The notes under the pieces: generated by a model
Seen by the model: the letters and a program-made list of their open reading frames with translations, nothing else
The model's database searches: none
Told to the model about the DNA's origin: nothing
Shown: piece by piece, positions 10,554 through 39,949 of the stretch
Numbering within the stretch: position 1 is the stretch's first letter
How the letters are laid out: every line of letters begins with the position of its first letter
Origin: Candidatus Micrarchaeaceae archaeon
Lineage (GTDB): Archaea; Micrarchaeota; Micrarchaeia; Micrarchaeales; CABMGC01
NCBI GenBank assembly: GCA_038877255.1
Contig: JAVYWZ010000006.1
Span: forward strand, 1-43,425
Direction: 5' to 3'
DNA length: 43,425 nucleotides
Program-made: the position numbers and the translations under genes

Positions 10554-10576
10554 TTAAGGCAGATATTATCGGCAAT

Positions 10577-10660
10577 GCGCCGATAATCTAGCCTGGTAGG
10601 ATGCGAGCTTCCCAAAGCAGGAAACAGCTCGAAGCCCGGGTTCAAATCCCGGCCGGCGCA
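10577..10660 (+). tRNA. tRNA-Gly(CCC) with an 11-nt intron at 37/38 (10615-10625)
   Basis: CGAGC-TTCCCA[AAGCAGGAAAC]A-GCTCG, with a TTCC/GGAA central helix of a BHB-like motif and T-arm CCGGG-TTCAAAT-CCCGG. Confidence 0.9.
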
Positions 10661-10824
10661 GTGTAAAACAAACATTGAAAACATGAGAAAACAAAACACT
10701 GTTGCTTTTGCGCTATTCGTTATCAGATGCATGTTCGTGCCTTTCGTCGTAATAACAGCAGCAACCATGCTTAACAGCGCATCTTTGTTAGGTTTTTCAT
10801 ACAAGATATTAGCGATGCTTTGAC

Positions 10825-20788: not shown

Positions 20789-20908
20789 GCCAGGGTGGCG
20801 GAACCTGGTAACGCGCTGGTCTTGAGCGCAGCTCAAGAGCTGATCTGTGATGCGAAAGAAAACCAGTGCCCCTCTGTGGGCTTTAGGGTTCAAATCCCTA
20901 CCCTGGCG
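20789..20908 (+). tRNA. tRNA-Ser(TGA) with a 34-nt intron at 37/38 (20827-20860)
   Basis: Acceptor GCCAGGG/CCCTGGC, CTGGT-CTTGAG[intron]A-ACCAG, long variable arm GCCC/GGGC and T-arm TAGGG/CCCTA. Confidence 0.9.
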
Positions 20909-24310: not shown

Positions 24311-24420
24311 GTGAACTACCAAGCAATTGCGGGCTGGGCTTCTCGGGGCTTGCCGCTCTCTGAGTTAAATAACACATACATGCAAACGCATTTATTTTGG
24401 TTTACAAAAATTCGGCAGTT
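24311..24420 (-). ncRNA. Orphan omega-RNA-like / IS200/IS605 right-end element (element 3)
   Basis: The minus strand ends …GGCAAGCCCCGAGAAGCCCAGCCCGCAATTGCTTGGTAGTTCAC. The 5' AACTGCC (24420-24414) is complementary to the 3' GGTAGTT. Confidence 0.5.
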
Positions 24421-37742: not shown

Positions 37743-37897
37743 TGTCATCAACTAAGACAATAGATTTTCATGCTTTTATTACTTTTTACTGTGTTGCACT
37801 GTGCAAGGCGCAAGCAACGCTATTTATTTATATCTTTTCTTAGAAATACGTATTGCTGTTTCTCCCGCAATCACTGCAATTTGCAGGAGGGATTTAC

Positions 37898-38533
37898 ATG
37901 CTTGAAGACAAATACCCTGAATTTGAGAAGTTCTTATCAGAGAACAAGGCCAAGCGCAAGTTTAAACAAACAGTAGAGCTTGCAATAAACTTCAAAGGCA
38001 TAGACTTCAACGAGCAGAGCAACAGGCTTAACCTTTCTATAACACTTCCTAATGGCAGAGGAAAGAGCAACAAAGTAGCAGTATTCGCCACAGAAAAGGA
38101 TATTATAGAAGACGCAGGCAAGAGCGGAATAAGGGTCATAAGCGGAGAAGAACTTATGAGTATAGCAAACGACAAGCAAAAGCTTAACGACCTGCTTGCA
38201 TACGACCTGCTTGCACAAGCCAGCCTAATGCCGACTATAGCAAGGCAGTTGGGCCAGTTTCTAGGGCCTAAGGGCAAGATGCCAAAGCCCATACTGCCAG
38301 GCAACAGCATAAGCAAAATCGCAAAAGAAAGTGCACAACAGATTGTAATAAAAAGCAGTGGCAAGTTCCTGCCCACTGTGCATTGCACTGTAGGCACTGA
38401 GGACATGGAGCCTTCACAGATATTCGAAAACATAAAAGAAGTGCTTAACACGATAGCAAGTAAGGTGAACACAAACAACATAAAATCAGTTTACGTAAAG
38501 CTCACAATGAGCAAGTCAGAGAGGCTGATATGA
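37898..38533 (+). CDS. rpl1: 50S ribosomal protein uL1
   Basis: Motifs RKFKQTVELAINFK, LGPKGKMP and VYVKLTM. Confidence 0.96.
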   Translation: MLEDKYPEFEKFLSENKAKRKFKQTVELAINFKGIDFNEQSNRLNLSITLPNGRGKSNKVAVFATEKDIIEDAGKSGIRVISGEELMSIANDKQKLNDLLAYDLLAQASLMPTIARQLGQFLGPKGKMPKPILPGNSISKIAKESAQQIVIKSSGKFLPTVHCTVGTEDMEPSQIFENIKEVLNTIASKVNTNNIKSVYVKLTMSKSERLI

Positions 38534-39375
38534 TGCAAAAAAGGCAAAAAGAGGCGCTTGTAAGAAGCCTTAAAGAAGGTATTGCAAAGAGCAAAACAGT
38601 TGCAATAATGCCTATAAATGGCATGCCAGATGCGCTCTTGCAAAAGGTGCGCAACCAGCTTAGAGACAGTTCAAAAATCATAGTTACAAGGAAAACATTG
38701 CTTTCGCGAGTACTGATCGGCAATTTAAGCCCACTTGCTGAGAGCATGCAGGGAAACGTGGCGCTTGTTCTAAGCGACCTTAGCCCGTTCGAATTGCATA
38801 AGAGAGCCAGCGCCAACAAGCTAGAGCTTATTGCCAAGCCCGGCCAAACGGCCCAAAATGACATAGTTATAAAGGCAGGCGAAACCAGCGTTGCGCCAGG
38901 CCAGTCCGTTACAGAGCTTAAAGCCGCAGGCATAGACGTGCAGATACAGAAAAACAAGGTAGTGATCGCGAAGGACAAGGTAGCAGTAGAAGCAGGCAAG
39001 CGTGTAAGCTCAGTTATAGCAAACGCGCTCAAAATACTCGGAATAAAGCCGTTTTTGGTAAGCGCCACAATAAGTGCGGCTTACTCTGAAAACGTACTTT
39101 TCAGCAGACAGGCTCTCAGCATTGATGAGGCATTCGCAACAAATGAAATAGCGAAGTCTTTTGCGGAGGCAAACAGCCTAAGCATAGGCATAGGCTTTGT
39201 CACGCAGTACAATGCAGGCTATTTTATAAGCAAGGCACATGCCGAGGCGCTCGCACTAGGCATTGCGGCTAAGGTTCCAGAACCAGAGATCACGAAGCTG
39301 CTTTTGGCTGGCGCAGCGGCACAAGCCAATAAGATTAATTCGGCGATAGGTAATTCCCCTTCGGCAAGCGCATGA
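38530..39375 (+). CDS. rpl10: 50S ribosomal protein uL10 (P0)
   Basis: LLQKVRNQLR, AKPG…DIVIKAGET…PG and LKILGIKP; follows rpl1. Confidence 0.93.
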   Translation: MMQKRQKEALVRSLKEGIAKSKTVAIMPINGMPDALLQKVRNQLRDSSKIIVTRKTLLSRVLIGNLSPLAESMQGNVALVLSDLSPFELHKRASANKLELIAKPGQTAQNDIVIKAGETSVAPGQSVTELKAAGIDVQIQKNKVVIAKDKVAVEAGKRVSSVIANALKILGIKPFLVSATISAAYSENVLFSRQALSIDEAFATNEIAKSFAEANSLSIGIGFVTQYNAGYFISKAHAEALALGIAAKVPEPEITKLLLAGAAAQANKINSAIGNSPSASA

Positions 39376-39388
39376 ATCGAGCAAAGAT

Positions 39389-39396
39389 ATTTATAG
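39389..39396 (+). promoter_or_regulatory. TATA box with upstream purine-rich BRE-like bases, ahead of the omega-RNA-like element
   Basis: GCAAAGATATTTATAG lies ~22-25 nt upstream of the first hairpin, the same spacing seen for tRNA genes in this window. Confidence 0.55.
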
Positions 39397-39416
39397 TCAT
39401 GCTAAATAATAGTATT

Positions 39417-39559
39417 GTCGGAAACGGCTAGCCTGCGGACGCAGGTTAAACGCTCGCAGAGGATTATGCCTCTGACATAAGCAAGCATGTTTATTGAAGC
39501 GAGAAGCTCCAAACAAGCAGACGTGGCGTAAGCTAAGTCTGTAAGTCGGGGTAGTTAAC
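39417..39559 (+). ncRNA. Orphan TnpB omega-RNA-like scaffold (element 2) between rpl10 and rpl12
   Basis: GGCTA-GCCTGC/GCAGGT hairpin, then AAACGCTCGCAGAG..CCTCTG..GCAAG..TGAAGCGAGAAGCTCC..CAGAC/GTCTG..GGGGTAGTTAAC. CTCGC pairs with GCGAG and GGCTA pairs with TAGTT. Confidence 0.72.
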
Positions 39560-39646
39560 TAATGTTGCCGCAAAGCAATAATGCAAATACTATTGGCGTA
39601 GAACCAGCGCCAAGCAGCAATGATGTTAAAACATGAAAAGGTGAAA

Positions 39647-39949
39647 ATGATGGAATACATATATGCAGCACTCTTGCTCGATTCGCTGGGCAAGGAAGTA
39701 AGTGAGGAAAACCTCAAGAAAGTCGTTGAGGCAGCGGGCCAAAAGCCCGATGAAGCAATGGTCAAATCTGTTGTTAACTCGCTAAAGGGCGTTAATATAA
39801 AAGAAGTTATAAAGAACGCCCAAGTGCAGCAGGTACAGCCTGCGGCAGCTCCTGCGGCAGGAGCCCAACAGGAAAAGAAAGAGGAGAAAAAAGAGGAAAA
39901 GAAGAGCGAGGAAGAGGCAGTAGGAGGCCTAGCAAGCCTATTTGGCTGA
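39647..39949 (+). CDS. rpl12: 50S ribosomal protein P1 (L12p)
   Basis: [10 protein letters not shown]…acidic hinge…GLASLFG. Confidence 0.97.

Follow-up and report, generated by a model that had tools for sequence, protein, structure and literature searches.

A gene-less IS200/IS605-type tnpB/ωRNA transposon derivative as the probable insert at the rpl10-rpl12 junction of a Micrarchaeaceae archaeon

The junction between the ribosomal stalk genes rpl10 and rpl12 raises a question in the 43,425-nt stretch of Micrarchaeaceae archaeon DNA analyzed here (the window): what fills the space between these two genes, and does it serve the host? The archaeal P0 gene rpl10 occupies 38530..39375 of the + strand (an ORF of 281 aa; Pfam Ribosomal_L10 56.8 bits, RL10P_insert 62.2 bits), and the archaeal P1 gene rpl12 follows on the same strand at 39650..39949 (Ribosomal_60s, 61.6 bits). 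The gap between them measures 274 nt, compared with 10 to 52 nt in 13/13 relatives, and a sequence-only reading of this DNA had rightly called it unusually wide. The 13 loci come from a set of 24 relatives in which P0 was matched; 12 of the gaps were measured by script and that of L024 (~18 nt) by eye from the DNA. The same reading took the insert for a stand-alone or domesticated RNA gene. We instead identify 39340-39559, with a probability of roughly 85%, as a gene-less element of 220 nt, derived by deletion from an IS200/IS605-type tnpB/ωRNA transposon and similar to PATEs and MITEs: it is one of 22 copies, possesses both transposon ends, lies in the rpl10 coding tail, and is found at this junction in 0/13 of the relatives examined.

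The limits of the element were taken from a MAFFT alignment of 14 copies, in which homology starts with TC.GCGA.. after a TTAAC-type flank and ends with GTAGTT[C/A]AC. The latter is the homology limit in all copies, and the flanking sequence beyond it differs in each. On the + strand of the window the element thus delimited spans 39340..39559, with boundaries good to ~+/-2 nt. The unit starts inside the rpl10 ORF and not at 39389, where the sequence-only reading had placed it, whereas the guide position that it proposed, 39560-39579, proved correct, with homology among all copies stopping exactly at 39559. Directly 5' of the left end stands TTAAT (39335..39339, + strand), a target (TAM-like) motif that belongs to the ancestral rpl10 sequence; the corresponding site in rpl10 of the closest relative (G002) likewise reads AAAATTAAT. 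TTTAAC/TTAAC flanks 8/11 left ends in the window's genome and 9/10 in relatives, and L079 has TTTAAT. Comparison with the empty site reveals no duplicated target, within the uncertainty of single-base boundaries, and excising exactly 39340-39559 leaves the rpl10 frame unrestored, one base short, which points to an error of 1-2 nt in the boundaries or to a later indel. Insertion 3' of a short TAM, no target-site duplication, and a right-end TEM that resembles the TAM are what characterize the family, and all three are found here. The sequence TAATGTTG, common to the flanks of the window element and of the C16 copy, was considered as a part of the element and rejected, as (C/A)TGTTGC occurs at the homologous place in G002 rpl10.

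As read from these alignments, a member of the family inserted at codon 270 of rpl10, 3' of the short target motif TTAAT, where the gene encodes its variable C-terminal tail. The left end of the element provides 11 new codons and the stop codon of this gene as well as the conserved TATA-type block, and the remainder is the right end, which in full-length copies is the tnpB 3' end encoding the ωRNA scaffold. The element encodes codons 271-281 together with the TGA stop (39340-39375, + strand), and the protein parts from its relatives exactly at the insertion point, where ANKIN is followed by the terminal SAIGNSPSASA. The former C-terminal tail has been displaced to 39562..39636 (+ strand), where 24 codons and a TGA still form an open frame that is now untranslated and serves as rpl12 leader. 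This displaced tail matches the P0 tail of G002 at both the nucleotide and the amino acid level, ending in APSSNDVKT before its stop, compared with QPSSNDVKA in G002. The rpl12 ribosome-binding site GGTGA (39640-39644, + strand) has been kept, and the rpl12 protein start (10 residues) is conserved in relatives together with a AAAGGTGAAA motif. The insertion was presumably tolerated because this region of P0 is unconserved and because the rpl12 ribosome-binding site and co-transcription are intact. Logan contigs of a public DNA run, at ~4x, bridge both junctions of the element, although the run may be the window's own assembly sample and is not independent. No contig of the DNA runs shows an empty-site allele, parts of the stretch without contig cover being uninformative.

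Membership in a multicopy family is supported by searches of the window's own 713-kb genome. In this genome blastn detects 16 family places, and a covariance model of the right end (R1, described below) recognizes 22 right-end copies at E<=0.01. About 10 copies are miniature elements that join a left end of 175 nt to a right end of 84 nt at one common deletion junction, and there is a single full tnpB. Both ends of the window element can be aligned with related copies, and it contains no intact protein-coding gene, as is typical for PATEs and MITEs. Its left end (39340..39411, + strand), a diverged subterminal region followed by a conserved GAGCAAAG..TATTTATAG promoter-like block, aligns with the copies on contigs C7, C4, C5, C1, and C9 and with the left ends found upstream of tnpB in relatives. 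The TATA box noted from the sequence alone is confirmed as TTTATA at 39390-39395 (+ strand), within this conserved block and before the scaffold, and it presumably fits the archaeal TATA consensus. That fit, together with the position of the block upstream of tnpB in full-length copies, suggests that it acts as a promoter. A second trace of the family within the window is a 53-nt "nano" relic at 24311..24363 (- strand), in which ~15 nt of left end are fused to ~35 nt of right end after TTTAAC; blastn aligns it at 97% over 32 nt to C7:41420-41451, and R1 scores it at 14.9 bits (E 0.013). The subfamily of the window element has two copies only, the window's own and that on C9. Exact-pattern scans of metagenome contigs returned 0 matches for the junction of left end and scaffold and 0 for hairpin 1 with TAA, and G038 (unpublished), among the 41 genomes searched, gave a chance-level match only. 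As a side observation, ~11/16 scorable copies have a co-oriented ORF shortly downstream, a proportion that is not significant and that derives from crude ORF finding with no real gene calls.

No tnpB or tnpA adjoins the element among the window ORFs, as the sequence-only reading had observed, and its expectation of a tnpB elsewhere in the genome was confirmed by a 443-aa ORF at C7:40115-41443, which ends inside the repeat. In Pfam the encoded protein scores 30.6 bits against OrfB_IS605 and 28.3 bits against Cas12f1-like_TNB, barely above cut-off in either case, and phmmer relates its residues 106-399 to the ISDra2 TnpB structures at E 1.5e-8. At the level of the family, assignment to IS200/IS605 is supported by Y1 (HUH) TnpA in relatives: in a scan of 100 upstream ORFs from 80 loci, Y1 tnpA (PF01797) was found directly upstream of a 68-71%-identical tnpB in L045, L046, and L050, and also in L095. 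The window's own genome, which is 92% complete, yielded no tnpA, and because of this the present-day mobility of the element is doubtful.

The catalytic residues of the C7 TnpB, which the sequence-only reading had singled out for inspection as a possible sign of a nuclease-dead protein, give a divided answer. The aspartates of RuvC-I and of RuvC-III are conserved (D215 and D377), and the canonical RuvC-II Glu, which we take to be E278 in ISDra2, aligns to Gln302. This Gln is found in 27/27 clade homologues, down to 31% identity, and in the same 27/27 an acidic D/E follows at position +2 (Asp, D304, in the C7 protein). Given this invariance, we rejected the idea that the C7 TnpB had recently been inactivated by an E>Q mutation. 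A TnpB2-type rearrangement, with a Glu ~45 residues downstream, was likewise considered, and alignment A1 has no conserved acid there. An archaeal IS605-type precedent is TnpB2 of Thermoplasma volcanium (TvTnpB), described in the available part of Jiang et al. (2023, Sci Adv, PMC10530073) as an active nuclease despite having no canonical RuvC-II Glu, with a 5-nt TAM of NTGAC. On that partial account, the C7 TnpB would resemble TvTnpB in lacking this Glu and in a target motif, TTAAC, similar to NTGAC, and would differ in that TnpB2 has its replacement Glu ~45 residues downstream, whereas the C7 clade appears to have only the invariant D/E two residues after the Gln.

The part of the element that corresponds to the ωRNA scaffold (39412..39559, + strand) consists of former tnpB 3' coding sequence and the right end. 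It contains in-frame stops, the former tnpB frame being interrupted by TAG and TAA, and by comparison with 24 other copies in alignment A2 it is without a 41-nt internal hairpin after 39474. Its proposed homology to tnpB 3' ends is borne out by blastn, which aligns the window right end to the 3' end of the genome's own tnpB on C7 at 81% over 83 nt, and by R1, which was built from 23 tnpB-linked 3' ends with the window left out and which scores 95 bits (E 6.7e-25) on 39439-39559, its positions 1-160 being aligned across an internal gap of 41 positions. At gathering score Rfam finds nothing but 5 tRNAs in the whole window, and at E<=10 it gives chance-level matches only in 39200-39800. ARAGORN likewise predicts no tRNA or tmRNA at the junction.

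Stems listed from the sequence alone are present, namely AATAGTATT/AATACTATT, TAGCCTGCG/CGCAGGTTA, CAGAGG/CCTCTG, and GCAGAC/GTCTGT, and the + strand folds at -81.1 kcal/mol, compared with -66.1 +/- 4.7 for 200 shuffles (z -3.2; 0 as good), with a z of -1.5 for the - strand. Hairpin 1 (39429..39448, + strand; CCTGC-GGAC-GCAGG, within TAGCCTGCG/CGCAGGTTA) corresponds to RNAalifold pairs 54-61/65-72 of alignment A2. The paired compensatory changes that had been claimed are indeed seen here, pair 55/71 being GC in 12 copies and CG in 10 and pair 60/66 GC in 11, UA in 8, and CG in 4, with the window carrying compensatory variants. By contrast, the hairpin CAGAGG-ATTATG-CCTCTG (39457..39474, + strand) gives no covariation evidence because it is nearly invariant in the family. 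Overall, RNAalifold finds 9/33 pairs with a change on both sides. The 3' stem S (39517..39542, + strand; GCAGAC/GTCTGT), the loop of which can form a candidate pseudoknot with the 3' tail, is 90.8% paired over the 38 copies of alignment A4, and 3/6 of its pairs change on both sides; a candidate pseudoknot pair, 73-86, is CG in 18 copies, AU in 8, and UA in 3. The 3' domain as a whole is 88.1% paired, compared with 32-42% when slid, and none of 500 shuffles attained its covariation score of 0.314, figures to be read with the caveat that the copies are mutually related and that the 3'-domain structure was proposed from the same sequences. The window copy keeps 6/6 pairs of stem S, 3/5 of the pseudoknot, and 2/4 of helix H, so that 4/15 scored pairs of the 3' domain are broken; the genome's own tnpB-linked copy likewise keeps 11/15.

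One of these stems extends beyond the element. The 9-bp helix AATAGTATT/AATACTATT (39408-39416/39586-39594, + strand), which pairs in 9/9 positions and had been taken to bracket the unit, joins element DNA to target-locus DNA. Of its two arms, the sister copy on C9 has the left one and not the right. With an estimated chance expectation of ~0.1-0.3 such 9-mers in 275 nt, we judged it fortuitous.

If the gene-less transposon copy is regarded in the light of what TnpB-ωRNA pairs do, a simple role for its RNA can be proposed. The ωRNA of ISDra2 has a pseudoknot, and a pseudoknot-like 3' domain is suggested for the family of the window element as well. As in ISDra2 TnpB-ωRNA (8bf8/8exa/8h1j), the scaffold overlaps the tnpB 3' end and the right end, and the guide comes from the flank, whereas the two RNAs have no detectable sequence similarity and the two TnpBs differ by Gln302, with Asp at +2, in place of the canonical RuvC-II Glu. 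Transcripts arising from the left-end promoter, or by read-through from rpl1-rpl10, would consist of the scaffold and ~16-20 nt of flank and would run into rpl12, and the flank that they carry would be the old rpl10 tail. Were the C7 TnpB to load this RNA in trans, it could recognize and cut the uninterrupted rpl10 allele (TTAAT followed by TAATGTTGCC...), and such cutting of an empty allele would favor retention of the insertion, in keeping with the selfish "homing" role that is standard for TnpB-ωRNA. For the window element, then, ωRNA transcription, RNA ends, and TnpB loading are predictions from sequence, and cross-recognition by the C7 TnpB is not assured because the right ends of this copy and of the C7 copy share only 81% identity. 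Nothing indicates a function for the host, and the element is best described as ordinary selfish DNA in an unusual place.

A reading that we consider possible, though doubtful, accepts the same origin and holds that the copy is now an immobile scar, with an RNA unused by TnpB, tolerated as a spacer between rpl10 and rpl12. The genome without tnpA speaks for it, as do the 41-nt scaffold deletion, the stops in the former coding frame, and the small subfamily (the window and C9), of which the two metagenome-contig pattern scans found no member. The terminal motif adds to this: at the TEM position the window has TTAAC (39555..39559, + strand) for the family consensus TTCAC, which is also the TEM of ISGst2 in the accessible part of Meers et al. 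(2023, bioRxiv 10.1101/2023.03.14.532601), and mutations in that TEM lead, on the same partial account, to mis-excision. Against full decay stand the retention of stem S and of hairpin 1, the latter through compensatory changes, a TATA block conserved as well as in tnpB-linked copies, and an intact TnpB in the genome.

The terminal motif also invites a regulatory interpretation, which we find improbable: ωRNA and TnpB would bind their own locus, or the promoter or the structured RNA would act as an rpl12 leader that sets the P0:P1 ratio. The motif at the TEM position, TTAAC, is identical to the family target motif and stands directly 5' of a flank that matches the guide perfectly; the RuvC-II Glu is a Gln, the promoter-like box faces rpl12, and the crude and nonsignificant count of copies upstream of co-oriented ORFs points the same way. 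However, TTAAC at this position is found in two of the 26 copies of alignment A2, the window's and L120, and the latter is tnpB-linked and at another locus. The Gln is clade-wide in a proliferating transposon family, always with D/E at +2. The comparison of junctions across relatives, proposed as a way to reveal a conserved scaffold or guide, found the element in none of the 13, which argues against its conservation as a regulator, and with no match to an Rfam leader or other family the locus does not behave as a ribosomal-protein autoregulatory leader of the L10-leader type. TldRs, described in the available part of Wiegand et al. (2023, bioRxiv 10.1101/2023.11.30.569447) as domesticated, nuclease-dead, TnpB-like repressors that are stably linked to the genes they regulate and often C-terminally truncated, offer a parallel. 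To the extent of that description, the likeness is that a catalytic residue is altered in a relative of TnpB and that a guide RNA stands beside a host gene, whereas the C7 TnpB is full length and belongs to a transposon of which many copies have decayed, and the conserved association of guide RNA and host gene across species that marks TldRs is seen at 0/13 of the relatives' junctions. A more specific version, in our view a distinctly long shot, would have the TTAAC end cause the RNA to steer the sole TnpB to its own junction (39560-39579, a perfect 20-nt match), where binding in place of cutting, or processing of the polycistronic rpl1-rpl10-rpl12 transcript at the scaffold, would amount to an RNA-guided brake on rpl12. 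If true, this would be TldR-like domestication at its very start, in a reduced symbiont genome.

It is scarcely credible that the insert is an orphan ωRNA gene programmed against a virus, the symbiont's host, or another genomic locus, despite the promoter-like box, the recognizable scaffold, and the absence of an adjoining tnpB, since the guide (39560..39579, + strand; as target, TAATGTTGCCGCAAAG...) consists of the first part of the displaced rpl10 tail, which is what any such element would be expected to have there, both transposon ends are present, and each of the many sister copies has its own flank as "guide." No further match to it with <=3 mismatches occurs in the window, and in a genome-wide fuzzy search every match had >=2 mismatches and lacked an in-register TTAAC/TTAAT; the best blastn match, a 14-nt identity at C5:8591 (E 1.7), is in a coding gene, at chance level, and has no in-register TAM. 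The idea of a programmed guide, advanced in the sequence-only reading, thus finds no target in the genome other than the element's own locus.

The preferred reading, a miniature transposon copy, places the element next to ωRNA-bearing PATEs, which "often encode ωRNAs" and need TnpB in trans, as already described in the part of Meers et al. (2023, bioRxiv 10.1101/2023.03.14.532601) available to us. Like the PATEs of Geobacillus stearothermophilus related to ISGst1/ISGst5, as far as that text presents them, the window element has transposon ends, no protein gene, and multiple copies, and its ωRNA region would have to be served in trans by the TnpB of another copy. Within the same limits, it differs from them in being archaeal, in a 0.7-Mb genome of Micrarchaeota type to judge by the labels of its nearest public homologues, with TTAAC/TTAAT as target motif, in a retained left-end promoter that adjoins the scaffold almost directly, and in a location in the coding tail of a ribosomal protein gene with a TEM that is TAM-like.

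In conclusion, what looked like an exotic RNA gene within the stalk operon can be explained as a miniature transposon. The locus provides a clean natural example, in which relatives keep the empty site, an essential ribosomal protein gene has received its stop codon from the left end, and the ωRNA "guide" is visibly no more than coding sequence displaced from the tail of the target gene. Annotators may take a warning from it, as ~20 scaffold copies set against one tnpB in a 0.7-Mb archaeal genome mimic structured noncoding RNA genes. The family, with its TTAAC target, TTCAC terminus, and RuvC-II Q-x-[DE] signature, with autonomous tnpA-tnpB relatives, promoter-ωRNA miniature elements, and one copy with a target-mimicking terminal motif, is a compact archaeal one in which the use of ωRNAs in trans may be tested.

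The feature between rpl10 and rpl12, read from its sequence, is an ordinary, nicely placed non-autonomous IS200/IS605 element. The dedicated stand-alone RNA gene proposed by the sequence-only reading, an orphan TnpB-type omega-RNA with its own promoter at 39389-39612, did not hold up against membership of a repeat family, the presence of both transposon ends and an empty site in relatives. Open reading frames (ORFs) and Pfam matches place rpl1 at 37853-38533, rpl10 (P0) at 38530-39375 and rpl12 (P1) at 39650-39949, all on the + strand. The rpl10 stop and the rpl12 start lie 274 nt apart, compared with 10-52 nt at the 13 relatives' loci examined, out of 24 relatives with a P0 match (12 by script; L024, about 18 nt, by eye). 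For 39376-39650, the + strand has a folding energy of -81.1 kcal/mol, compared with -66.1 +/- 4.7 in 200 shuffles (z -3.2; - strand, z -1.5). As the gap is far above the relatives' range, the fold has this z-score and the stems named in that reading are present, its observation of a long structured gap was real. An Rfam search of the gap gave no family match. In the window and 13 relatives (L023-L035), P0 ends in a short stretch that varies and lacks the acidic ...GLxxLFG, a peptide that every rpl12 examined in the window and relatives bears; in well-studied archaea, P0 has the acidic tail in common with P1.

In the assembly to which the window belongs (30 contigs, 713 kb, 92% complete), many contigs carry repeats of the gap's 3' two-thirds. 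A blastn search with C7:39800-41482 and MAFFT alignment of 14 copies define a family whose members have internal deletions. About ten join a 175-nt left end (C7:40013-40187) to an 84-nt right end (C7:41369-41451), the others retaining a longer stretch of the tnpB 3' end. Similarity among all copies ends after GTAGTTCAC, the downstream sequence differing copy by copy. Left ends start TC.GCGAGCGGGAAG..., with TTTAAC or TTAAC directly 5' in 8/11 own and 9/10 relatives' copies, and the base 3' of CAC at the right end is a pyrimidine in 14/16 and 20/20, respectively. A GAGCAAAG..T(A/T)TTATAG block, conserved 5' of the tnpB start in every left end, would, by the known consensus, be an archaeal BRE/TATA promoter. 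The window holds a second derivative on the - strand at 24311-24363, a 53-nt "nano" form that keeps some 15 nt of the left end fused to some 35 nt of the right, with the end GGTAGTTCAC and a TTTAAC flank at 24364-24369. By crude ORF finding, a co-oriented ORF follows about 11 right-end copies at a distance of some 10-215 nt and an opposing one about 5, a count without significance; the flank at C2:21049 resembles a tRNA 3' end in antisense. Elsewhere in the window, Rfam calls tRNAs at 10577-10660 and 20789-20908. Both may contain introns, since ARAGORN gave the first (10576-10661) an odd 4-base anticodon and missed the second, of 120 nt.

Alignment with family copies places the element on the + strand from 39340 (TCGGCGATAGG...) to 39559 (...GGTAGTTAAC), and its left end therefore falls within the annotated rpl10 ORF, of which codons 271-281 (SAIGNSPSASA) and the TGA are supplied by the element. 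The P0 of the closest relative (76% identical) reads ...ANKINNLLQHNNGGSEGQAAQPSSNDVKA*, and that of the window runs to ...ANKIN, followed by residues of element origin. The frame 39562-39636 opens two bases past the right end and encodes 24 residues that match the P0 tail of the closest relative, with rpl12 starting 13 nt on. The window junction is the filled site and the relatives' junctions are its empty-site homologues. The sequence-only reading had put a guide at 39560-39579, and this position was correct, as copies diverge directly past the right end; the bases themselves are the start of the displaced rpl10 tail. In silico excision of exactly 220 nt leaves the rpl10 frame one base short, so that either the boundaries carry an uncertainty of 1-2 nt or an indel arose after insertion; the pyrimidine preference after CAC may bear on this boundary. 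Both the left (39145-39401) and the right (39445-39884) junction are spanned, at about 4x, by contigs from one public DNA run, in which the right-end core appears as a 66-nt contig at depth 278. As the window itself may have been assembled from that run, this is not independent confirmation.

A covariance model (R1) built from 23 tnpB-linked sequences, window and sister copy left out, matches 39439-39559 at 95 bits (E 6.7e-25), covering the whole model except a 41-position internal hairpin absent from the window copy; the earlier call of a TnpB/IS200-IS605 scaffold is thereby borne out. With this model, 22 sites in the assembly score at E<=0.01, the window copy ranking eighth. In an alignment of the window with 25 copies (5 from its own assembly, 20 distinct tnpB-linked 3' ends of relatives and public MAGs), RNAalifold predicts 33 pairs, 9 with compensatory changes. 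Covariation is clearest in hairpin 1 (pair 55/71, GC:12 CG:10; pair 60/66, GC:11 UA:8 CG:4), where the window has CCTGC/GCAGG in place of CCTAG/CTAGG, with both sides changed in compensation. Across 38 copies of the 3' domain (a proposed helix H, stem S and pseudoknot), 88.1% of cells are paired against 32-42% with slid partners, a control that flatters a structure derived from the same sequences; pseudoknot pair 73-86 is CG:18 AU:8 UA:3. The window keeps 11/15 of the domain's pairs, as does the tnpB-linked C7 copy. As the former coding frame of the window copy contains TAG and TAA stops, the preserved signal is at the RNA or DNA level, not in protein.

A tnpB elsewhere in the genome, also anticipated, is represented by a 443-aa ORF at C7:40115-41443, which overlaps one repeat copy at the contig end and takes its stop from the TAG of GGTAGTTCAC. 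By sequence it is a TnpB: it exceeds the Pfam cut-offs for OrfB_IS605 (30.6 bits; 30.5) and Cas12f1-like_TNB (28.3; 26.3) and matches solved ISDra2 TnpB chains (phmmer E 1.5e-8), and of its 100 homologues (E<=1e-10) almost all bear both domains. It is the sole full-length tnpB of the assembly, further protein-level matches being fragments with stops; five ORFs of 105-157 aa (C4:8525-8671, C21:2720-2857, C8:17136-17282, C2:100-246 and C7:5298-5438) match the zinc ribbon only (residues 343-390, 36-40% identity). The right end of this copy (C7:41258-41482) and a decayed copy (C2:31130-31352) are 95% identical over 225 nt with an identical 24-nt flank, and may stem from a single locus present as two alleles or strains, or from a join made in assembly. 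A nuclease-dead partner, as the sequence-only reading suggested, is conceivable. The RuvC-II Glu position of ISDra2 TnpB aligns, with high posterior probability, with Gln302, and an acid (D/E) follows at +2. This Q-x-[DE] arrangement is found in 27/27 aligned homologues, down to 31% identity. Active TnpB2 enzymes carry a Glu relocated about 45 residues away (Jiang et al. 2023, PMC10530073), whereas this clade has no conserved acid about that far downstream, and it may therefore represent a different RuvC-II rearrangement or a binding-only clade.

The 92% complete assembly yielded no Y1 transposase (PF01797). Among 100 upstream ORFs of 80 loci, a Y1_Tnp gene lies immediately 5' of tnpB (68-71% identical to that on C7) at three public Micrarchaeota MAG loci (L045, L046, L050), and one distant Bacillota locus (L095) has such a gene there too. 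The family is therefore a true IS605-type transposon, some of whose members are autonomous. Its terminal motif (TEM), TTCAC, is that quoted for ISGst2 (Meers et al. 2023, 10.1101/2023.03.14.532601). The tnpB family is patchy (7/151 genomes sampled from the order), and the labels of its closest public homologues (80-85% identity) span several archaeal phyla. Homologues 74-85% identical (P0001-P0007) are labelled Conexivisphaerales, Nitrososphaeria, Thermoplasmatales, Thermofilum and Micrarchaeaceae, and titles of loci at 68-80% (L044-L053) add Marsarchaeota and Parvarchaeota; such mixed labels could reflect transfer between community members, perhaps symbiont and host, or binning error.

The window copy has the TEM TTAAC, the same as the family target motif (TAM) and shared with tnpB-linked L120, which in principle places a TAM beside guide-matching DNA and would allow self-targeting. 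With its sister (C9:25931-26190, about 60 nt upstream of a small co-oriented ORF) it has a distinct architecture in common, in which hardly anything separates the promoter from the scaffold to which it is fused. Metagenome contigs gave no further copies in two exact-pattern scans, and two copies prove nothing about this architecture. That TnpB and the ωRNA, directed at their own locus and possibly without cutting, act on rpl12 seems very improbable.

In the non-autonomous element, the left-end promoter and rpl1-rpl10 read-through probably both yield RNA of scaffold plus flank; the element has no T5+ runs. The insertion is probably tolerated by the host, because the P0 tail past ...ANKIN differs between relatives in both sequence and length and rpl12 has kept its GGTGA site and start. 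PATE elements "often encode ωRNAs," for which TnpB of other copies must act in trans (Meers et al. 2023, 10.1101/2023.03.14.532601); such elements are thus already described there, and the window element adds one case. TnpB could likewise load the element RNA in trans, and the complex would recognise TTAAT plus TAATGTTGCC..., that is, the uninterrupted rpl10 allele, which would match the standard TnpB-ωRNA role in retention and homing (Meers et al. 2023, 10.1101/2023.03.14.532601).
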